Assembly: GCA_026770705.1 (NCBI GenBank)
Contig: JANJGN010001184.1
Coordinates: 1-64,000, forward strand
Reading direction: 5' to 3'
Source of the DNA: Isurus oxyrinchus
Taxonomy: Eukaryota
Length of the DNA stretch: 64,000 nucleotides
Part shown: positions 14,376-64,000 of the stretch, piece after piece
Position numbering within the stretch: the first letter of the stretch is position 1
How the letters are laid out: the number at the start of each line of letters is the position of its first letter
Notes under the pieces: generated by a model
The model's input: the letters and a program-made list of their open reading frames with translations, nothing else
What the model was told of the DNA's origin: nothing
Databases searched by the model: none
Position numbers and translations under genes: made by a program

Positions 14376-14949
14376 AAGGACAGAGAGGGACAGACAGAGT
14401 CGAGAGACACCCAGAATGAAAAAAACACAGTAAACACTGGAAAATAAACATTCTGGTCTGATCTGGTCTTGTATACCTTCAAATGGAACACCAGTAAAAC
14501 AGGGAAATAAGAGTACTGGGCCAAACTGTTAGAGAGGGTCACATTAAGAGAGAGAGAGAGAGAAAGAGGGAGACACTGAAAGAGTTAAGGACAAGGAAAG
14601 AAAGAGTGAGAGAGAGACAGAGAGAGACACACAAAGAAGTAGAAAGAAAGTGATAGAGATGAAGCAGGAGAGAATGAGGAGAAAGATAGATAGATAGAGA
14701 GAGAGGATGGTAGAGAAAGAGAACGAGAGGAAAAGAGACAAAGGCAGAATGTGATGGAACACTGAATCCTTGTCTATGCGTTTTGAAATCCAGCCCAGAA
14801 CTATCATTGGAAGATTCAGCGAGTGTCCAGTACAGGGGACCCAGCCCAACCTTCTCATCCTGACCTTCCCAGTGGGGCTGAAGAGGGCAGAGAGGAAACC
14901 TTCCTCTGTTATTCTGTTGTCGAATAAACACAACAATTCTGGAACTCTG

Positions 14950-15550
14950 CCCTTTCTATCTCATGGATTAGAATATAAGGGGGCAGAGGTCATGCTTCAG
15001 TCTACATAAAGCCCTGGCTAGACCACACCTGGAGTCACTGTGAGACATTCTGGGCCCCACACCTTAGGAAGGATATATTGACCTCGGAGGGAGAGCAGTG
15101 TCAGTTTACCAGAATGAGACCGGGACTCCAAGGGTTAAATCACAAGGAGAGATTAAACACAAACTCGGCTTGTATTCCTTGGAAGTTAGAATGTTAAGCA
15201 GGAGATTTGATGAAAGTTCGCATGATAATAAGGGGAACAGATTGGGGGCGATAAAGAGAAACCATTTCCCCTGGTTGGGGGGAGTCTGGGACTCGGGGTC
15301 AGAGCCTAAAAAGGAATTAAATTAGGAAGTACAAAGGGTGGGAGAAATTTGGAACGGTCTTCCCCAAACTGAAACTGATGCACGATCAAGTTGTTCATTT
15401 TAAACCTGTGAGACTGATAGATTTTTGTTATCCAAAGGTATTAAAGGAGATGGGACAAAGGCATATGGGGCTAGTTTGCAGATCAGCCATGAACTCTTTG
15501 AATGGTGGAGCAGGCTCGAGGGCCAAATGGCCTCCTCCTACCCTTATGTA
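14950..15550 (+). mobile_element. CR1-type LINE 3' fragment
   Basis: gaatataagggg...ctagaccacacctggag...gatcagccatga...ggccaaatggcctcctcct. Confidence 0.75.
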
Positions 15551-15962
15551 ATAGAAACTTACCTGTCAGAAGCCAGTTTATGTTGATGTGAGTCTGAGTC
15601 GATGACTGAACCCAGTTGGTAACTTGTTCCATACAAAGCAAGAACGTTCATGCCCTTCAATGTTCCTGGATAAACCATGAACAAAGCTGGTGACAGACAG
15701 TCTCCACATGGTAAACACTGACCGATCAACACATGACATGGCTGTTAACCCCTAAACCTCAGCGTAAATCAGTTCCCCCTCGAGGCCCCTTGTCCGAAAT
15801 AAAAGCAACGCACACAATTTGTAAAATAGTAAGTGTCTGGCAGGAAGGAGGAGCAATGAGAGGAGTAAGGGGTTAGGGGGCGTGCGCTTCACCTGATTTG
15901 CCGACATAAGAACCAGCCCCTCTGTTTTTGCTATGTTGTGTTGCGTCAATATGAACACATAT

Positions 15963-16153
15963 TTGCACAAGGTGAAGGGCGTTGCGGAGGGACTGATAGT
16001 TCTCGGCGCCAGACAGTCAATGTCCCAGTGACCTTACTGCTGGTCCCAGGCCAGTGGGACAGGGAACATCGACACTGCAATATCCAGAAATGGGTGTGAT
16101 ACCACACAGCTACCCACCCGCGGCTGTCCCCTTCAAGTGTTTCAGGTATAAGA
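15963..16153 (+). promoter_or_regulatory. Putative hepcidin proximal promoter
   Basis: C/EBP-like TTGCACAA at 15963-15970, BMP-response-like GGCGCC at 16005-16010 followed by the SMAD box AGAC, and TATAAGA at 16147-16153, about 75 bp before the ATG. Confidence 0.6.
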
Positions 16154-16223
16154 GCAGGAAGCTCCTCTAGTTACAAACCAAAGCATCAAAGCAGAGCCAG
16201 AAGATCAGAAGAGACAGGCAGAG

Positions 16224-16315
16224 ATGGGAAGCTCCCAGATGAAATGGCGACTTGTCTTGTTCACTCTGACTTTGCTGCTCTCCCTGCAGCTGAGTCACTT
16301 CTTCTCCTTGTCGAG
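16224..16315 (+). CDS. hamp: Hepcidin exon 1 (signal peptide MGSSQMKWRLVLFTLTLLLSLQLSHFFSL..); frame is 1 nt out of phase with the donor
   Basis: Basic n-region plus Leu-rich core downstream of a TATA box; donor GAG|gttaag at 16315/16316. Confidence 0.75.
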
Positions 16316-16516
16316 GTTAAGCTAAGAGATGTCCCTCTGGGTGAGGTGTTTCTTGCACATGACTATACGTCTACCACCCAGATAGACTGGTCTCTTCCGC
16401 AGTTTGATATTATTATGTTCGTGCCTTTAATATTGTCGCCCTCTATGAATTTAACATCATTTCCTTCTGTCGTTTCCCCTGAAATTCTCATTCTTGTTTT
16501 CAATCCCTCCTCAGCG

Positions 16517-18642: not shown

Positions 18643-18699
18643 GTTGACACTGCTTTAGGTTCTTCGACGATTGAGAAATCTGTGGATTCCCCGGACACG
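18643..18699 (+). CDS. hamp: Hepcidin exon 2 (pro-region VDTALGSSTIEKSVDSPDT)
   Basis: Strong acceptor ttctttctttttgcag, 57 nt, phase 0/0, donor ACG|gtaggt; in frame with exon 3. Confidence 0.75.
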
Positions 18700-21040: not shown

Positions 21041-21151
21041 GGCTCCTTGCTGCAGCGCCAGAAGAGAATGGGCAGATTCTGCAGATTCTGCTGTAACTGC
21101 TGTAATTCGAGAGAATCAAATGAGACTTGTGGTCTCTGCTGTAGATATTAG
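21041..21151 (+). CDS. hamp: Hepcidin exon 3: GSLLQRQKR|MGRFCRFCCNCCNSRESNETCGLCCRY*
   Basis: Acceptor gcttttccag, furin site RQKR, 8 Cys in the hepcidin C-x2-CC-x-CC-xn-CG-x-CC pattern, stop TAG at 21149-21151. Confidence 0.93.
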   Translation, partial: GSLLQRQKRMGRFCRFCCNCCNSRESNETCGLCCRY

Positions 21152-21494
21152 ACCCTGGCCTCATTCACGCAAGGTCATCCTGCACCATGCCACAGCCTCT
21201 CCCCTCCTTATCATTGCTTAGCAATCTATTTCACACAGGCCCTGTTCATTAATTCCAACTGAAACTTTACCTGCGTTTTACAGCAGGGAAAGAAGCCATT
21301 CGGCCCATCTGCTCCATGCTGGTGTTTCTGCTCCACACGAGTCTCCGCCCACCCCTTCTCCATCTCACCCCATCACCATATCCTTCTATTCATTTCTCCC
21401 TCGTGTGTTTATCCAGCTTCCCCTTAAATACATCGACACTATTCACCTCACGTGACTGTGTTTGTGTCTGTCTTTATGAGCGTGTGTGTGTGTG

Positions 21495-23814: not shown

Positions 23815-24890
23815 CATCCAGTCGTGGACAATCAAACAACTCACTGGAGGAGGAGTCTCCACAAATATCCCCATCCTCAATGATGGAGGAGCCCAGCACA
23901 TCGGTGCAAAAGACAAGACTGAAGCATGCGCAACAATCTTCAGCCAGAAGTGCTGAGTGGGTGATCCATCTCGGCCTCCTCCTGAGGTCCCCAGCATCAG
24001 AGATGCCAATCTTTAGCCAATTCGATTAATTCCACGTGATATCAAGAAAGGGCTGAAGGCACTGGATATTGTAAATGCTCCAGGCCCTGAAAATATTCTG
24101 GCAATAGTACTGAAGACTTGTGCTCCAGAACTTGCTGCGCCCCTAGCCAAGCTTTTCTGGAATTTTCTAGTACAGCTGCAACACTGGCAACTACCCGGCT
24201 ATGGGGTACGTCCTGTACACAAAAAGCAGGACAAATCCAACCCAGCCAATTACCCAGCAGTCTATTCTTGATCATTACTAAAGTGATTGAAGGGGTCATC
24301 AATAGCGCTTTCAAGCAGCACCTGCTTAGCAAGAACCTGCTCACTGACGCTCAGTTTGTGTTCCACCAGGATCATTCAGCTCCTGCCCTCATTACAGCCT
24401 TGGTTCAAACATGCACAAATGAGCTGAACTCCAGAGGTGAGAGGGACTGCCCTTGACATCAAGGCAGCATTTGACTGAGTGTGGCAAATCAAGGAGCCCG
24501 AGCAAAACTGGAGTCAATGGGAATCGGAGGAAAACTCTCCGCTGCTTGGAGTCATACCCAGCACAAAGGAAAATGGTTGTGATTATTGGGGGTCAATCAT
24601 CTCAGTTCCAGGACATCACTGCAGGAGTTACTCAGGGTAGTGTCCTAGGCCCAACCATCTTCAGCTGCTTCATCAATGACCTTCCTTCCATCATAAGGTC
24701 AGAAGTGGGGATGTTTGCTGAAGTTTGCACAATGTTCAGCATCATTCACGGCTCCTCAGATACTGAAGCAAGTTATGTCCAAATGCAGCAAGACCTGGAC
24801 AACATCCAGGCTTGGGCTGACAGATGATAAGTAACATTCATGCCACACAAGTGCCAGGCAATGACCAGCTCCAACAAGAGAGAATCTCAC
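23815..24890 (+). mobile_element. Degenerate non-LTR retrotransposon RT region (CR1/L2 group)
   Basis: GVTQGSVLGPTIFSCFINDLPSIIRSEVGMFA and QQDLDNIQAWAD, with frameshifts. Confidence 0.85.
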
Positions 24891-30394: not shown

Positions 30395-30717
30395 AGGACC
30401 GGACTCAACAAGACAGATTGCAGGTTTACCAACAGAAAGTGAACAACAATTTATATTTAAAGGGAAGAGAGTGCTGGTTAATCAGCAAGTGGTCTCTGAT
30501 TGGAGGAGGTGTTGCCATGGAAAATAATGTGTGTGAGATGTAAAGTTTAGACAGCTTGTCTCTTCATTCAGCAACAATCAAATAAAGATCAGTTAACTTC
30601 TATCGACTGTGAAGCACTTTGAGAGGCATGAGAATGTGGACACTGAGAACGGGCTGCACTGTCAGAGGGTCAGCGCTGAGGGAGTGCTGATGTAGAATGA
30701 AGGGTGTCTGTACTTAC

Positions 30718-31014
30718 CTTGCACAGTTAGTACGAGGGTCCGCTCCGATGAAACAGATGGATATCTCACTCTGCAGCTGAGAGTGTGTCCGTGGTGTTTG
30801 AGTGATGGGATCAGGGTCAGAACAGAAGTATAGGACAGAGTGACACCATGCTGAGTTACAGTGTTTGAGACTGATCCACGTACGTCAGTGGGAGTGTCCC
30901 AGGTTAAGACAGGTGCTGCTGTTCCATTGCACGTTGTGTTGAAGGTGCAGCTTACATCCACAGGCTTTCCTGCAATAATTTCAGCAGGGAATATCGTGGG
31001 TTTATCTGTGAAAT
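30718..31014 (-). CDS. Gene B C2-set Ig exon (open, 297 nt)
   Basis: DFTDKPTIFPAEIIAGKPVDVSCTFNTTC...LSCRVRYPSVSSERTLVLTVQ; ag/gt intact; differs from 51134-51430 at only 2 residues by my alignment. Confidence 0.9.
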
Positions 31015-31742
31015 CTAACAGACAGAGAATGGATCCTTTTAGAGAAATATAACGTGAAGCATCAGTTCAAATAGAAATCACAGTCCCACAAGAGAAAGCA
31101 CTTTTACAAGGATGATATCAGATCTGAGAGGTTACAATGATTAGGAGAGAATTTCCTGCTTTGAGACTTTGGTGTTTCTGTCTCTCAGCTTAATACACGT
31201 TCACTCCGAGACACTTGAACTGATAATAGTGGGTGAGGGTGGTGGAGCAGACCAGAGTTTGGAGTGCACTAACCCATCAGTCCCTCAGCGATCTGGGCCA
31301 TTTTTTACTTTGCAATTTGTGGGAGATTGCTGTGTGCAAATTGGTTGCTGTGTTTCCCACATTACAATAGTAACTACAATTCAGGAATCAGCTCATTGGC
31401 TGTGAAGTGATTTGGTCCATGCTGAGGTGGTGAAAGGTGCTACAGAAATGTGAATCTTTCCTCTGTCGCTAAGTCAGACTTCGAGACAGGATTAGAGAGA
31501 TCGATAGGAGTGGATAACCTGATAACATTGATGGACACAGTCAATACATTTAATCATTGATATTAAAGTGAGTATTAGAGGTTGCTTTAGGAGTGAATTA
31601 GAAGCGATCACCAGGTTATTGAGAATCAGACAGTGTGTTATAATAAGCTGTGTTTTGTGTTAATACGTAAACGTTACAGTTTGTGTTATTTCCCATGGAG
31701 TGTTGAATGTGAATTGTTGAGTAATTATAACACAGCACTTAC

Positions 31743-32108
31743 CAGAAACGTGAAGCTGGGTTACAGGGTAATAGTTATGGCTCGGACCATTGTCAAATTC
31801 TATTCTGAAAAAATAAGGTCCCGCATCTTCCCGTCTGATGTTGTTTATAATCAGGGAACAGTCGCCATCTTTCAGGTCTCCAGACAGCCGGGTCCGATGG
31901 TGGAACCGTGGTAACTCGTGACTGTGATCCTTGGAGTGAAAGGCTATAGACGATGTTCTCCATTCCTCATAATTAAACCAGACTCCACCTCACGGTTGGT
32001 TTTCCAGACACGATGGATAACTGTAATGACATGGAATCTGTACACACGAACCTTCCTGCACTGTCACCTCTCGTGGATTGTCACCTTTCTACTCTTGCGA
32101 GGGTTCAG
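31743..32108 (-). pseudogene. Gene B V-set exon V2 with two premature stops
   Basis: 366 nt with intact splice sites, SCVQIPC and YFFRIEF. TGG>TAG at 32089-32091 and CGA>TGA at 31990-31992. Confidence 0.92.
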
Positions 32109-32179
32109 CTGGGGAGAGAAATATCAATATTTAACTCTGAATGGTTTGTGGATCCACTGAACCCGATATTTACAGATGA

Positions 32180-32960
32180 GGCTGAATTGGGGAGATGGTC
32201 AATACTGAGGAGAATGGCAACAAATTATATTGTCAGGAAGAATAGAAAAACAGGATATAATTTAAATGGAGACAGGCTGCAGAATGCAGTACAGAGGGAT
32301 CTGGGTGTCCTGGTACATGAATCACAGAAAGTCAGCATTCAGGAACACCACGGAATGAGGAAGGCAAGTGGAATGTTGGCCTTTATTGCAAAGGGATGGA
32401 GTATAAAAGGAGGGAAGTCTTGCAACAGCTGCACAGGGTGTTCGTGATATTGTAACAGGATCATTGTGTACAGGCAGTTCAGAGAAGCTTCACTGGGCTG
32501 ATTCCTGGGATTAAAGGGTTTGTCCTGTGAGGAAATGTTGAGCAGGTTGGGCCTGTATCCATTGGAGTTTAGAAGAATGAGGGGTGACCTTATTGAAACA
32601 TATCCGATTCCGAGGGGGCTTGACAGGGTGGATGCTGGGAGGATGTTTCCCCCTCGTGGGGGAATCTAGAACCAGGGAGCACAGTTTCGGAATGAGGGCT
32701 CTCCCATTTAAGACTGAGATGAGGAGGAATTTCCTCTCTCAGAGGGGCGCTAGCCTGTGGAATTCTCTTCCCCAGAGAGCAGTGGAGGCTGGGCCATTGA
32801 ATAGACTCAAGGCTGAGTGAGGCAGGTTTTTGATCGACAAGGGAGTCAACGGTTTGGGGGACAAGCAGGAAAATGGAGTTAAGGCCGCAACCAGATCAGT
32901 GAGAGCAGGCTGGAGGGACCGAATGGCCTGCTCCTGTCCCTATTTCTTATGTTCCTACAT
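32180..32960 (+). mobile_element. CR1 LINE 3' portion between V1 and V2
   Basis: QRDLGVLVHESQK, RRNFLSQRGASLWNSLPQRAVEA, and a CR1-type tail. Confidence 0.85.
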
Positions 32961-33325
32961 TCTTACCTTCTTAAAATATTAAAGCTGCAGAATAAACATG
33001 CAAGTGACTGACCCGCTCAACCCACCTTCCATCTGGGGGTCCCATGGGGAGGACCCTTCCTGAGCCAGATCCACCAGCCAACATGGTCTGGATCTGAGCA
33101 CAGGAGACACGGGAGGGAGTGACTAACAGGCTCCTTGTGACAGGCCCCGTCTGTCCAATGGCTGGCTTTCAGCTGCCAAGGCCAGAGTTGTCCTTGCTAA
33201 AACTGGCTCAGGACAGGCCAGGACCTCTGTGCAGACCCCCTCCAGCGCTGCAGCCTCTGTACAAACCCCTCATGCGCTTGTGGAGAGACACAAACAAGGC
33301 TGCACATTACCGAGGAGAATCCCCT

Positions 33326-33741
33326 CTACGGACTAAGGGGCTGACTCATCACCTTAAACTCAGCAAATGAGGAGGCTGAAACATGAAGCTGGGTTTCAGG
33401 ACGGTCGTTGTATCTATTCCTGCTGTCAAAATCTGTTCTGAATAAATAATATCCTGCATCTTCCCGTCTGATGTTGTTTATAATCAGGGAACAGTCACCA
33501 TCTTTCAGGTCTCCAGAAAGCCGGGTCCGATGGTGGAACCGTGGTAACTCGCGACTGTGATCCTTGGAGTGAAAGGCTATAGACCATGTTTCCCAATTCC
33601 TTCTCATATACCAGATTCCAACAGGTGATCTCGGTACTAAATATGATGGGTAGCTGTAATGACACGGAATCTGTACACACGAACGTTCCTGCGCTGTCAC
33701 CTCTCGTGGAGTGTCACCTTTCCACACTTGTGGTAGTCCAG
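33326..33741 (-). CDS. Gene B V-set exon V1: open frame, splice donor lost, reads through 16 codons to a stop
   Basis: Acceptor tctccccctag; Siglec V-set homology 33741-33376 with FR (Arg) retained; GTTTCAG|cc in place of GTTTCTG|gt. Confidence 0.8.
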
Positions 33742-34132
33742 CTAGGGGGAGAAATATCAATATTTAACTCTGAATGTTTTGTCAATCCACTAGACTCAAA
33801 ATCCACCCCCTCCATCACTGGGGCACAGTGGCTGCAGTCTGGACTCACAATGAATGCCCCAATGTTTCACAACACATTGAAGAGAATCCTGGATACAGGA
33901 GTGGACAAGTTCATTCTACATTGGCTCGTGGCCCTCAGGAACCTGTTTAGTGAAGCCAGTCTTCCACCCAACACAGTGTCTACAAGACACACTAATTGAA
34001 GTGAGTTCACTGCTGATTTTCAAACTAGGACAATGGATTAGGAGCCTTCAGAATTCCCCCATTATCACCATCATGAATCATGAATTGGCCTAGCTGTCCT
34101 AGATCCTCAGTGTCTAAGGCAGTGGTTCCTAT

Positions 34133-36629: not shown

Positions 36630-38270
36630 AAATGATACCAGAAACCTCTTATTCTCTGTCCTTTTCAAAGATCCATCCCTGCAGCAGGAGCCTTAAGAGT
36701 TATTGATGTGGGGCTTAATTTATCAGATTGTAGAATGATCTGGAAGAGAAGGAAGTCATTTGGCCCATCGAGCCTGTGCTGGACCTTTGAAAGTTCTGTC
36801 CAATAAGTCCCACTGTCACCTCTGCTCTCTCCTCCACAGCCCTGCAAAATGTCCCCTTCAAGTATTTATCCAGTTCCCCTTCTGAAAGTTCCTGTTGAAT
36901 CTGCTTCCACCGGCCTTTCAGGCAGTGAGTCAATGGTCTCTCTCTGAGCTGCAAAGTGCTCAGATTCTGTGAAATTTAAACTCTGCAGCAGGTCAGAGAC
37001 AATTATGATAACTCAGAATATTTGACAGCTTTACACACAGACAGCTTTACCTCCCTTCTCTCTTTCAGTTATCTTGCTCCCTTATTGAAGTATCTAGCAT
37101 GGTGAGAATGGACAGGAAGTGTGACACTGAACAGCCTGTCTATTCTAGGAGCTGCTGTGTTGTCTTCATGGGAAATTCTGACTAAAATCAGCAAATGACA
37201 CAAAATTTCAGGGCATTGTTATCCGAGTCCTAACATCAGGATAGACCTCATTCCCCAGTTTTTATCCCTGTTTCTCTATTCAGCCTATCGCTCCCCTGTC
37301 ACTGGCTGACCTACATTGGCTCCCAGTCCAGCAATGACTCAAATTTCAAATTCTCATCATTGATTTCTTACCCGCAATCCACCCTCTCCCCTCCCTATCT
37401 CTGTAACCTCCTCCAGTTCTTACAACCCTCTGAGATCTCTATTCTCCTCCAATTCTGCTGTCAGACAGGGAGTCAGTGTATATCAGTGAGCACAGGGGTG
37501 ATGGGTGAATGGGACTTGGTGTGAATTTGTACACTGGCTCACTGCTGAATCGGTTCCCAATCACAGCTCAATAAGAATGATCTTTTACAAAGACTATTAG
37601 CCATAAATCTGTCTGAGCTGACGATGATACTACCTTGGAGAAGTGACAGGAGGAAGTAAGATTTCCCGATCATTGTCCACTCCCAGATATTCCATCCACT
37701 TCTGACTCTCAAGCTATGAAAGAGAAAGGAGTTAATGAGACCTCACCTCTTGTCCGACAGCTCTCGAGAGATCAGAACTGCTTTTAGACAATGTTTTCTC
37801 AGACTAATTTGATTATCTGTGGGATGATAGGTGCTCTGCAGAGAGTCACAAGACTTTAACAAAGAAAAACAATGAAGGGTTTGCATTTCTATAGCACCTT
37901 TCACCACCTCAAGATGTCCCAAAGCTCATGTCTCTGCTCTTCCCTCATCCCTTGAGCTAGAAAGATGTTCTGTACAACAGACTTGAGCCTCACACCCAGA
38001 TCTCAATAATCAGTAGAAATCTTTCAAAGGCATCAATCATTGGAATCTGTCTTTATAAAGTCACAACATCAACAAAGGACGGTGTTGGTGGTGGAAGTGA
38101 ATTCCAATCGTTCCGTTACTTACCCAGGACCTGTCCGACTGCTTGCCTGGGGAGGAACTGCCCACCCGCTCTGCTTGGGCAGAATGACCTCTTCCTGTGC
38201 TGCTCCCTCTGTGTGTTTAATTAGAAAGGGTTGATGTGTCACTGTGAGACAAAATGTGGAAGTGGGTAAT
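36630..38270 (-). repeat. Inverted segmental duplicate of about 46640-48215 (promoter, 5'UTR exon, leader exon, intron)
   Basis: Long near-identical reverse-complement matches, e.g. 38040-38170 versus 46745-46880, and 36860-37170 versus 47695-48030. Confidence 0.92.
37634..37673 (-). CDS. Gene B signal-peptide exon MIGKSYFLLSLLQ
   Basis: Same peptide as the gene A leader; phase-1 donor CAAG|gtagt. Upstream non-coding exon donor TGG|gtaagt at 38124. Confidence 0.88.
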
Positions 38271-38484
38271 CAGTGAGAAGATTGAGGATGTTTTGTGCTC
38301 TCAGCAAAACGTTTACCATGTGATGATCTGTCAGCTCATATTTGGGCAGCTGTAGTCATGAAGCTTCTCCAATGGCTCCGTGGGATTAAACCCCTTCCCC
38401 TCACCTCGGAGGCTGAAACTCAGGCGATAGAGTTCCCAATACAGGTCTCTGGCCATATGGTCCATGTCGACAATCTGTGGTATC

Positions 38485-46639: not shown

Positions 46640-46793
46640 CTCACTTTGTTCCAACTTCCTCATTTTGGCTCACAGTGACACATCAGCCTTTTCTAATTTA
46701 ATACACAGATGGATCAGCACAGGATGAGGTCATTCAGCCCAAGCAGAGCGTGTGGGCAGTTCCTCCCCAGGCGAGCAGTCGGACAGGTCCTGG
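46640..46793 (+). promoter_or_regulatory. Gene A putative promoter and non-coding first exon
   Basis: ETS/PU.1-like ACTTCCTC at 46654-46661; donor TGG|gtaagt at 46793/46794; conserved in inverted gene B. Confidence 0.5.
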
Positions 46794-47225
46794 GTAAGTA
46801 ACGGAACGATTGGAATTCACTTCCACCACCAACACCGTCCTTTGTTGATGTTGTGACTTTATAAGGACAGATTCCAATGATCGATGCCTTTGAAAGATTT
46901 CTACTGGTTATTGAGATCTGGGTGTGAGGCTCAAGTCTGTTGCACAGAACATCTTTCTAGCTCAAGGGACATGAGCTTGGGGACATCCAAGGTGGTGAAA
47001 GGTGCTATAGAAATGCAAGACCTTCATTGTTTTTCTTTCTGAAAGCCTTGTAACTCTCTGTAGAGCACCTATCATCCCACAAAGAATCAAATTAGTCTGT
47101 GAAGATATTGTCTAAAAGCAGTTCTGATCTCTCAAGAGCATTCGTACAAGAGGTGAAGTCTCATTAACTCCTTTCTCTTTCAGAACTTCAGAGTTAGAAG
47201 CTGAGGAAATATCTGGGAGTGGACA

Positions 47226-47265
47226 ATGATCGGGAAATCTTACTTCCTCCTGTCACTTCTGCAAG
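47226..47265 (+). CDS. Siglec-like gene A signal-peptide exon MIGKSYFLLSLLQ
   Basis: Acceptor ctttctctttcag at 47183, acaATG start, phase-1 donor CAAG|gtaat. Confidence 0.88.
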
Positions 47266-49904
47266 GTAATACCATTGTCAGCTCGGACAGATTTATGGTT
47301 AATAGTCTTTGTTAAAGATCATTCTTATTGAGCTCTGATAGGGAACTGATTCAGCAGTGATCCAGTGTACAAACTCACACCAAGTCCCATTCACCCATCA
47401 CCCCTGTGCTCACTGATGTACACTGACTCCCTGTCTGACAGCAGAATTGGAGTAGACCAGTGGTCTTGAAGGGTTGTAGGGGCTGGAGGAGTTTACAGGG
47501 ATAGGCAGGTTTGTAGCAGCGAGAGCAGAATCTTGAAATTCAGGTGCTGTCGGACGTTGGTCAGTGAGCGATGGGGATTGATGTGTTGAATAGAGAAGCA
47601 GGGATAAAACCTTGGGGGTGAAGCCTATCCTAATGTGAGGTCTCCGATAGCAATGACCTGAAATTTGTGTCCTTTGCTGCCTTTATTCAAAACTTCCCAT
47701 GAAGACAGCACAGCAGCTCCTAGAATAGACAGGTTGTTCAGTGTCACACTTCCTGTCCATTCTCACCTTGCTAGATACTTCAATAAGGGAGCAAGATAAC
47801 TGAAAGAGAGAAGGAAGGCAAAACTGACTGTGTGTAAAAGTGTCAAATATTCTGAGTTATCTGATGAGTGTCTCTGATCTGCTGCAGAGTTTAAATTTCA
47901 CGGAATCTGAGCACTTTGCAGCTCAGAGAGAGACCATTGACTCACTGCCTGAAAGGGCGGTGGAAGCAGATTCAACAGGAACTTTCAGAAGGGGAACTGG
48001 ATAAATACTTGAAGGGAAATTTGCAGGGCTGTGTGAAAGGTGCTGGAGAGGAATTGGGAAAGAGCCAGCACATGCACGATGAGTCAAATGAGCTCCTCCT
48101 GTGTTGTATCGTTCGACAATCAGACAATTTTAGATCCTTATCAACAAATCTTCAGAATCCTGCTGAATCACAGATATTTCAGAAGGACAGGGAACATGAG
48201 GTTTCTGGTATCAACGCTTCATGTGGGGCCCAGTTCAGTTTGAACAAAAAAAATGACAACAGCATCTTTGAAAGTCATGAACCCACCACAGCGGCACCTG
48301 CGACACATGCAGAGCTCAGGCTAGAGGCGCTTTGTTAGTGTGTTTCACAGTGTCTGCTGGAGTAGGGTCAGTGCTGAGCTTGGGGACAAGTCAGTCTACA
48401 ATGCTGCATTGGAATCAACAATACAACAATATGGGGTTTGCATCAGAAATAATCCCTTAGACAATGAGGATACAAAGAGATTCTTCAGACAATGAGGATC
48501 CAAAGAGATTCCTTAGACAATGAGAATCCAAAGAGATTACTTATTCCATCGGTTGTCTAACTGGGGTCCATGATTTTCCAAGGGGTCCTTGGCAGAATCA
48601 AATTATCGAGCAATAGTGTGTAAAATACGGGAGAGAACGGGAAAGGTGGGATCAATGGAAAACTGTTCACTCTGTTTACACTAATGGGAGTTAGTCTCAG
48701 TAATGGAGACCATGAAACTATCATCGATTGTCATACACACCCATCTGGTTCACTAATGGCCTTTAGGGAAGGAAATCTGCCGTCTATATCTGGTCTGGCC
48801 TACATGTGACTCCAGACTCATAGCAACGTGGTTCCTCTGAAATGTCCGAGCAAACCATCCAGTTCTCACCATGCTAGAAACTTCAATAAGGGAGTAAGAT
48901 AACTGAAAGAGAGAAGGAAGGTAAAGCTGCTCATGTGGATAGATGTCAAATATCCTGAGTGATCATGATTGTCTCTACTCTGCTACAGAGATTATGTCAC
49001 GGGACATTAGAGATGGGCAGCAAATGCTGGCCTTGGCAGCGACGCCCACATCCCATGAATGAATACATTTACAAAATCTTATTACTTGGAGGGATAAAAG
49101 GGTTAAAGAGTTGCTGATGGAGGAACAGGCACCCAATTTTTTTCGTAATTTACAGTTAGGAACCAATAATATTTTGTTTCAAGTAGACGAGGTTTGAGAT
49201 TTAAGATGCTTGTGAAGAGAATAAAGCTACAAGATTCCATGGCTTTTAAACAAACAAAAATAAACTTTACTGCACCAGCTCAGAAAGATAAAATAATTCA
49301 CAATATCCACCTTATACCCTAACATTCTGGATTAATATGAGCTCATGTGAATTAACAGGCAAACTGTGGTCTCACAGCCACATTACTCATTAAATTGTAA
49401 ACGCGACCAAGATAGAGCCCATGGATTTCACAACAACCCACCCGGACATCAGTGAACACTGTCAGTCAACCAATCTCACTGAAACTCTGTTTCTCTCATG
49501 AGGGATTCCAGTCTTCAACTTCGAAGATCTTGCCTTGGAATTCTCTCCAAAAGTCGCTTCAACTCGGATGGCCTCAGTGACGTTCCACCTCACAGGGTTT
49601 CCATCTCTTCTCCTGAGGCTCCATTGCCCTGGATTCCCGACTATATACTCAAGTACCACTAGGTTTAGATGAAAGGTTTTGATTGACTGGGTAGACAGAG
49701 AATGTTCCCTCTTGTGGGCAGGAGAATAACTAGAGGCCGAGTGATTGGTGATTCCTTAAACATTGAAGAGGGAATGAACACCAATCAGATTGAATCAGAT
49801 TAGCCAATCAGCTGTGTTGAAGAGCAGACAGGAATGTTAGGCTAATTAGTGATTCATGACGGTGATAATGGGGGGAGTTCTGAGTGGAAGACTGGCTTCA
49901 CTAA

Positions 49905-50174: not shown

Positions 50175-50396
50175 ACTAAACAGGGTCCTGAGGACCATGA
50201 GCCAATGTAGAATGAACTTGTCCACTCCTGTGTCCAGGATTCTCTTCCAACCATTGTGAAACCTTGGGGAGTTCCTTGTGTGTCCTGTAGATGGTCCACA
50301 CTGCAGCCACTGTGCCCCAATGATGGAGGCAGTGGAGATCAAGTCTAATGGAACTACAAACCGTCCAGAATTAAATATTGATATTTCTCTCCCCAG

Positions 50397-50762
50397 TTGG
50401 ATGGTCACAAGAGTGGAAAGGTGACACTCCACGAGAGATGACAGCACAGAAAGGTTCGTGTGTACAGATTCCGTGTCATTACAGTTATCCTTCAAATTTG
50501 GAAAACCAACAACGAGGTGGAGTCTGGTTTAATAATGAGGAACGGGGAAGATCGTCTATAGCCTTTCACTCCAAGGATCACAATCATGAGTTACCACGAT
50601 TCCGCCATCGGACCCGGCTGTCTGGAGACCTGAAAGATGGCGACTGTTCCCTGATTATAAACAACATCAGACGGGAAGATGCAGGACCTTATTATTTCAG
50701 AATAGAATTTGACAGCAGAAATAGTTACAGCTACTATCCTGTAACCCAGCTTCACGTTTCTG
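50397..50762 (+). CDS. Gene A Siglec V-set (sialic-acid-binding type) exon
   Basis: VGWSQEW..GSCVQIPCHYSYP..GVWF..RTRLSGDLKDGDCSLIINNIRREDAGPYYFRIEF..YSYYPVTQLHVS: Siglec Cys pattern, F-strand Arg, G-strand aromatics; ag/gt phase 1/1. Confidence 0.95.
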
Positions 50763-63416: not shown

Positions 63417-63698
63417 ATGCACCACAGGATGTCTCAATTACATCACTTGGTATGATTAACGCTTCATCGATCAATATAATTGAGGGGAATCCTGCAGTGA
63501 TAATCTGCTCTGTCGAGAGCTTCCCAGCTTCTAACCTGACGTGGCGACATCTTAATGTCCCAGTGAACAGAACAAGTTCCAACAATGAGCTGTGGTTGGT
63601 GATTCCTCACGTTACATCCAGGGACACTGGAGACTATCAGTGTGTGGCAGAGAATGAACATGGAGCAGTGGAGGGATTCATAACCATCACTGTGGAAC
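63417..63698 (+). CDS. Gene A tandem Ig exon 12 (gene continues beyond the window)
   Basis: 282 nt, tttag/gtgagt, APQDVSITSLG..GNPA..PVNRTS; no TM exon seen before 64000. Confidence 0.92.
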
Positions 63699-63724
63699 GT
63701 GAGTTACACAGACCTCAACATCTT

Positions 63725-63786
<62 letters not shown>

Positions 63787-64000
63787 ATGTGGGGGCACAT
63801 ACATGCACATTTACACACAGTCATACATGTGCATAAACCTACACAGAAACATACACACAGTCAACTCACACACACACACTCACACGTGCACACACATACA
63901 CATACACATGTACACACATTCACTTATGCACAGAAATATACACAAAGACACACGCACATTTGCGCAAACACATACACACATGCACACACAGACACATGTG

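Follow-up and report, generated by a model that had tools for sequence, protein, structure and literature searches.

Results and Discussion

A three-exon hepcidin gene

The window analysed here, a stretch of 64,000 nucleotides from the shark Isurus oxyrinchus (contig JANJGN010001184.1, positions 1 to 64,000 of the forward strand), holds a three-exon shark hepcidin gene with a signal peptide, pro-region, and furin-type site, all on the forward strand. The coding part of exon 1 (16224..16315) encodes the signal peptide, beginning at an ATG at 16224 or 16239 and ending before a donor GT at 16316, with 29 of its 30 residues identical to Cetorhinus hepcidin (P0003). Exon 2 (18643..18699) contributes 57 bases of pro-region between AG and GT borders, and agrees with the same protein in 16 of 19 residues. 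Exon 3 starts at 21041, directly after a good splice acceptor, its first part (21041..21067) encoding the end of the pro-region and an R-Q-K-R furin-type site (21056–21067). Assuming cleavage at this site, the predicted mature peptide (21068..21148) comprises 27 residues, including eight cysteines, and is followed directly by a stop codon at 21149–21151 and a 3' untranslated part (21152..21275) that extends at least to 21275, as the depth of the RNA-like run X1 remains high to the end of the aligned stretch. A six-frame scan of the 64 kb shows the cysteine pattern C-x2-CC-x-CC a single time.

Under GT-AG splicing, the assembled junction between exons 1 and 2 is one base short: exon 1 ends in phase 2 and exon 2 starts in phase 0, and the frame would run for 30 residues to a stop lying 41 bases short of the exon 2 end. 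The same junction in X1 carries one base more than the window, restoring the frame of the relatives. On the donor side, a contig of the DNA run X7 (28 letters beyond, the tool threshold being 31) and an unspliced X1 contig agree with the window, so the missing base probably belongs to the acceptor side, in a short G run. Short G runs are common sites of sequencing slips. As assembled, the window copy may be a pseudogene. A non-canonical intron from 16317, needing no missing base, is most improbable. An in-frame ATG at 16244 does give an open frame as assembled, but its product is non-homologous to the signal peptides of the relatives and less hydrophobic (1.9 compared with 2.5), and this start is disfavoured.

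The mature peptide

Translation of 21068–21148 bears out the 27-residue peptide proposed by the first-pass annotation of this DNA, with four residues before Cys1, no His, an eight-residue loop, and an N-x-T sequon at residue 18. The four-residue His-less start (21068..21079) is 6 bases shorter than in the majority type of organisms A and C, whilst the loop (21104..21127) has a charge of −1 and ends with the N-E-T sequon (21119–21127). The eight cysteines follow the hepcidin arrangement C-x2-CC-x-CC-loop-C-x2-CC, and their spacing of 2,0,1,0,8,2,0 is the same in six named elasmobranch hepcidins. The Pfam Hepcidin model (PF06446) matches the mature peptide alone with E 1.6e-4 and 22.3 bits, below the 27-bit cut-off, the peptide spanning only positions 34–52 of a 53-position model; all seven elasmobranch relatives score 44.8–50.9. 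A 35-residue piece from 21042–21148, in the wrong reading frame, shows no match to the Pfam Hepcidin model. The closest solved structure is that of the 21-residue bass hepcidin (1S6W, E 0.12), and an AlphaFold2 model was of poor quality (mean pLDDT 55.8, pTM 0.23), too poor for a fold search. A word search with exon 3 gave no candidate, and a search of the ESM Atlas gave no usable match. Among 1.84 billion representatives, phmmer gave exon 3 a single match, P0002, which is a repeat protein of low complexity belonging to no Pfam family and was set aside as a chance match.

The reading of the 27-residue peptide is no assembly slip, because exon 3 is matched exactly in two runs. The DNA run X6 gives one 210-base contig over 20971–21180 with 0 differences and 0 gaps, X6 being possibly related to the source of the window and of uncertain independence, and X1 gives a 68-base contig identical to 21079–21146. 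A second minimal R-x-x-R site, which we take to be a cleavage consensus here, overlaps the start of the mature peptide at 21065–21076; a peptide cut at this second site would keep a single residue ahead of Cys1, like the bass hepcidin of 21 residues.

Comparison with shark and ray hepcidins

Relatives were gathered by a search with exon 1, which led to the basking shark locus LOC144671611, by a profile search, which gave eight proteins among 58 candidates, and by a cluster look-up, which added two from Scyliorhinus torazame. Dropping two non-hepcidin isoforms and one truncated duplicate left seven hepcidins from six species. Six residues precede Cys1 in all seven; an eight-residue loop is present in six of the seven, as is His3, a residue found in none of the run types aligned to exon 3. 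A sequon lies at the same place in the loop of one of the seven, the canonical-type hepcidin of the ray Mobula.

On these alignments the long loop is the norm of the shark and ray group rather than a trait of the window gene, because six of seven relatives share it, and the derived features are the short start without His and the acidity of the loop. The first-pass annotation had regarded the doubled loop as atypical, and had named a long loop and short N-terminus as standard in chondrichthyans as a finding that would overturn its case. The loop proves to be nothing special, whereas the short His-less N-terminus, found in none of the seven relatives, is as unusual as had been proposed. The facts of the accompanying comparison with human hepcidin also hold, the human peptide having a four-residue loop and His at position 3 (PDB 1m4f), but measured against human hepcidin the loop was made to look more exceptional than it is. 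That sharks and rays normally have a long loop bears on the form of the ancestral jawed-vertebrate hepcidin. The sequon gives no sign of being a selected feature: one change beside the Thr of six of the seven relatives suffices to create it, and it recurs in Mobula.

Rate of evolution

The leader and the mature peptide have evolved at very different rates. Between the window and Cetorhinus, 52 of 58 leader residues are identical compared with 3 of 15 in the mature non-Cys core (Fisher p 3e-7), whilst the control pair of Cetorhinus and catshark shows the opposite, with 37 of 58 in the leader and 13 of 15 in the core. A relative-rate count from Cys1 on, with catshark as the outgroup, places 10 changes on the window side and 1 on the Cetorhinus side (p 0.012). 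In the leader tree the window is sister to Cetorhinus hepcidin-1 with support of 99/100 and a branch of 0.1, compared with a window branch of 1.92 in the tree of the mature peptide; a mackerel shark is accordingly its most likely source. The relative rate of 10 to 1 and these branch lengths amount to accelerated evolution of the mature peptide, a hamp2-like trait. A pairing of the window with Mobula in the mature-peptide tree was left unused, none of the four inner branches being supported. The leader tree, which has no teleost row, gives no sign of descent from the hamp2 duplication of ray-finned fish, placing the window beside Cetorhinus hepcidin-1. Differences among the copies seen in sequencing runs are also denser in the mature part (8 in 81 bases) than in the flanks (6 in 215; p 0.026).

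Variants and copy number

Four sequencing runs from four studies (X1, X6, X7, and X17) were aligned over exon 1 and exon 3, with depths taken as contig depth, which is summed, flat, and filtered, and differences listed at a 2% share. X1 was taken as RNA because its depth keeps to the exons and letters of separate exons are joined in it. It contains at least four start or loop variants, and X7, DNA of organism A, contains two. All aligned X7 depth at the start carries 6 additional bases, giving six residues before Cys1 and no His; the X7 majority type differs from the window in two loop residues, and a minor type (depth 55–73) diverges further. The single contig of X17, from organism C, likewise has six residues before Cys1, with a His at position 4. 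In X1, a depth of 26,687 aligns across 21077, of which 13,820 is free of the listed insertions, and the window-type loop accounts for ~8,000 of the 193,815 depth at 21108. In most variants six residues precede Cys1, His3 is absent, and the sequon is that of the window, the sequon codons (21119–21127) showing no listed difference in any of the four runs. Over 326 bases, the window type is separated from the organism A majority, and likewise from organism C, by two indels and four single sites. X6 aligned no contig on exon 1 and carries no weight as evidence there.

Across promoter, exon, and intron, contig depth reaches 464–1081 in X7 and 149–612 in X17, compared with 11.6–27.7 and 12.6, respectively, for a second type of intron 1, which is common to X1, X7, and X17 at eight listed sites. 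The resulting ratio of the main types to the second intron-1 type is ~40–90 in X7 and 12–47 in X17. This contrast suggests tens of copies, because a run of 3–4 billion letters is unlikely to reach 500–1000-fold depth on a single-copy gene. The number of variants and the depth contrast may also point towards the hamp2-like arrangement of several copies beside a single hamp1. In X1, the alignment of a contig with a depth of 6460 reaches 21070, fails across the mature part, and resumes at 21148, and a minor exon-1 type of similar depth (6350) has the Cetorhinus residue; we take these to mark a low-level paralogue whose mature peptide is very different and probably canonical. The derived start is a sign of a probable hepcidin expansion, which is of more interest than the single peptide.

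Expression and promoter

Spliced expression of the hepcidin family in X1 is shown by the distribution of depth, which climbs steeply from ~16192, reaches up to 178,753 at exon 1 and 1e5–3e5 over most of the exons compared with intron values of 4.8 or 128, and jumps at the exon 3 acceptor from 128 to more than 100,000. One X1 contig joins exon 1 to the first letters of exon 2. Upstream lies a TATA-like box (16147..16152) and, 142 bases before it, a single GGCGCC 6-mer (16005..16010) that resembles the BMP-responsive element of hepcidin promoters. X1 contigs of depth 143–1900 also lie upstream of and across the TATA-like box (16080–16190), perhaps because transcription also begins further upstream or because the run contains DNA of a multi-copy gene.

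Neighbouring genes

The hepcidin gene is followed by a broken LINE reverse-transcriptase piece (24370..24824, forward strand), which matches the tail of Cetorhinus isoform X3, by CD22/Siglec-like Ig exons on the reverse strand (30665..33763; Pfam V-set, Ig_CD22, and C2-set_2), and by a second CD22/Siglec-like gene of tandem Ig exons on the forward strand (50375..64000). The human hepcidin gene lies beside CD22/MAG-like genes and USF2. The neighbour Pfam scan covered 220 of 254 long frames (5 of low complexity and 29 in repeated units being excluded) and 138 of 143 short upstream frames; no bHLH match was found upstream of hepcidin in the frames scanned, and the CD22-like exons lie downstream.

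Cetorhinus LOC144671611 (P0003, P0004, P0008) is ‘uncharacterized’ in RefSeq; its isoform X2 is a canonical hepcidin, isoform X3 runs into the LINE piece, and isoform X1 into unrelated downstream sequence. Two Cetorhinus isoform tails map in order within the window, at 24370, and at 33794 and 34642, one of them also matching an inverted copy near 50,200. Alternative third exons of one gene were considered and rejected, the window having one exon 3 and the ends of Cetorhinus isoforms X1 and X3 being non-hepcidin.

The CD22-like gene at 52190–64000 has many near-identical Ig exons, and three 1666-base units between N gaps are 99.9–100% identical, which could reflect recent expansion in tandem or an artefact of scaffolding. 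CD22-like exons and their flanks also form an inverted duplication, 83–98% identical (30686–33951 with 50175–51462, and 36633–38277 with 46640–48213). Within the window, hepcidin lies outside the duplicated part.

Interpretation

The explanation we favour, which we hold at roughly even chances, is that this gene is a fast-evolved three-exon hepcidin, likely one copy of a duplicated and probably amplified family that would have given up the hormonal control of ferroportin, and that its product is most likely an abundant secreted host-defence peptide in parallel with teleost hamp2. Hepcidin would have duplicated in the mackerel-shark lineage after its split from catsharks, with one low-copy canonical hepcidin retained for iron control, and the other copies multiplying and diverging in the mature peptide. 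Their precursors would pass through signal peptide removal and furin cleavage after R-Q-K-R to form a four-disulphide hairpin as in other hepcidins, whilst the copper-binding His3 and ferroportin potency would have been lost. The derived peptides would instead act by abundance and variety, through microbe or virus binding or immune signalling, with simple membrane lysis less likely than for canonical shark hepcidin because positive charge has been lost.

The window peptide lacks the HAMP1-type start of six residues before Cys1 with His3, and the majority types have the six residues and no His3. A loss of ferroportin potency is predicted because the first nine residues of hepcidin are reported to carry the ferroportin effect (bioRxiv 2020.03.16.993006), because His3 forms the ATCUN copper site of human hepcidin (PMC6121404), and because sea bass Hamp2 is reported not to lower ferroportin (PMC5665920). 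A role in defence may follow by analogy with teleost hamp2. The suggestion in the first-pass annotation of a hamp2-like, possibly convergent peptide gains from the derived start, the fast evolution of the mature part, the several co-existing variants, and the high DNA depth; on the other side, the four-residue start is a minority form in its own family and the charge lies below that of canonical shark hepcidin.

The sequon is located nine residues from the mature peptide's C-terminus. Modification of sequons near the C-terminus is reported to follow translocation and to work better for N-x-T than for N-x-S, and a sequon 14 residues from the end is reported to be modified with lower efficiency (PMC3613688). 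Glycosylation of the loop sequon after translocation is possible. A broader proposal, which we advance tentatively and consider somewhat short of probable, is that mackerel sharks independently split hepcidin into a low-copy iron hormone and a family of tens of copies that dominates hepcidin expression, lost the basic loop and the copper and ferroportin motif with His3, and carries a loop N-glycan. If true, the hamp1/hamp2 division would have arisen a second time, in cartilaginous fish, and the family would include a glycosylated hepcidin. The independent shark repeat, along with a smaller catshark repeat, would then serve as natural replicates separating residues held by ferroportin from those that change when another copy has taken over that task, and the near-identical leader shared by canonical and derived peptides would permit their direct comparison by synthesis.

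Several observations weigh against the favoured explanation. The window holds a single hepcidin copy, which as assembled lacks one base where exons 1 and 2 meet. Contig depth is not a copy number, and the depth ratios lack a single-copy control; X6 shows the window type only, at a depth of 2.6. The canonical peptide of the depth-6460 X1 contig is a presumed one, and the two marker letters of the minor exon-1 type recur in the derived type of organism C. The promoter keeps its BMP-type element, and no STAT-type site was found in 14,901–16,240. The net side-chain charge of +2 compares with +4 to +6 in six canonical shark and ray proteins, and the loop charge of −1 with +3 to +5 in the same proteins (Cetorhinus +4). 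Among the copies, 7 replacement differences against 1 silent difference are no more than neutrality predicts (p 0.51) and give no sign of positive selection on the mature peptide; of the seven, two adjoin indels. Furthermore, croaker Hamp2 forms with fewer arginines had no reported antibacterial effect, and one croaker Hamp2 form raised macrophage iron (PMC6240063).

The shortened junction, the divergence of the window type at four single sites and two indels from the types of organisms A and C, its minor share of X1 depth, and the neutral pattern of replacements would also be expected of a decaying family member, with a real one-base loss, no mature peptide, and a start and loop that drifted neutrally. 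The frame stop 41 bases before the end of exon 2 fits such decay, as does the donor side, which matches the window in both contigs and so places the shortfall elsewhere. However, the missing base would sit in a slip-prone G run, the eight cysteines, furin site, and stop codon are all intact, and the 6-base loss at the start keeps the frame. The window-type loop is also present in X1 RNA, though a stop near the last junction may escape decay, as stops closer than 50–55 bases to it may do. We regard decay as an unlikely account of the window copy, and even if it were true, the expressed majority type would also be derived.

The derived peptides might alternatively be long-lived weak ferroportin ligands, with high expression, a glycan on the far loop, and copy number offsetting low affinity. 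The retained BMP-type element, the dominance of the family in the hepcidin signal of X1, and the six residues and hydrophobic residue just before Cys1 in the majority types agree with a role of this kind, as do the croaker Hamp2 form that raised macrophage iron (PMC6240063) and docking that places the disulphide-rich end outward, where a glycan could be tolerable, in a pose its authors call speculative (bioRxiv 2020.03.16.993006). The start, which mediates ferroportin binding, is nearly invariant in sharks and rays, with 5–6 of 6 residues shared between pairs, yet it is the most variable part among the copies, a diversification unexpected for a hormone, and the low-depth second type could hold the iron role; we consider weak ligands rather improbable. 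It is very unlikely that a single fast-evolving hepcidin gene explains the data, with the variants being alleles or species differences and the depth contrast a library artefact. One copy lies in the window in an arrangement like that of the Cetorhinus locus, depth is summed, flat, and filtered, and X6 shows one type, but the RNA of one sample (X1) contains more than two variants, two very different intron-1 types occur within X7, and the depth contrast recurs in two studies and spans promoter and intron.

Relation to known hepcidins

HAMP2 is reported from ray-finned fish only (PMC3978493), and the hamp1/hamp2 division is described as peculiar to them (PMC3978493, PMC6240063). Hepcidin is named once among nurse shark plasma proteins (PMC9207270), and appears in passing or in references in PMC6795676 and PMC3832898. 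Among the titles and starts of abstracts of the papers listed, subscription journals lying outside the scope, no description of a cartilaginous-fish hepcidin sequence or expansion was found.

The window gene resembles the elasmobranch RefSeq hepcidin-1 proteins (Cetorhinus maximus XP_078389754.1, Scyliorhinus canicula XP_038670190.1, S. torazame XP_072325013.1, Mustelus asterias XP_078092315.1, Hypanus sabinus XP_059813392.1, and Mobula hypostoma XP_062912710.1) in its leader, furin site, Met at mature position 1, Cys spacing, and eight-residue loop, and shares the neighbouring sequence of the Cetorhinus hepcidin locus. In contrast to these proteins, which have a six-residue start with His3 and a basic loop, its start has four residues without His, and its loop is acidic. 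The closest parallel among sharks is a second Scyliorhinus canicula hepcidin (XP_038669797.1, P0006), which also combines a near-unchanged leader with a long mature branch (1.16), lacks His3, carries a sequon, and has a low charge (+1). It represents an independent catshark event, however, with a four-residue loop, a His at position 4, and its sequon at the start.

Human hepcidin-25 (PDB 1M4F, 6WBV) shares the three-part precursor and the Cys spacing outside the loop, and differs in His3 and the length of the loop. The teleost hamp2 peptides (bass 1S6W, sea bass Hamp2, croaker Hamp2-1 to 2-5, and seabream Hamp2A-J) share a short or variable start without His3 and the presence of several copies, and the charges of seabream Hamp2A-J are reported to range from −2 to +6.25 (PMC11043163). 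Counted from Cys1, the window peptide matches bass 1S6W in all of the first eight residues; the bass loop has five residues whereas that of the window has eight and a sequon, and the copy number here is possibly in the tens. The window gene has an origin separate from that of teleost hamp2, its leader being nearly that of basking shark hepcidin-1.
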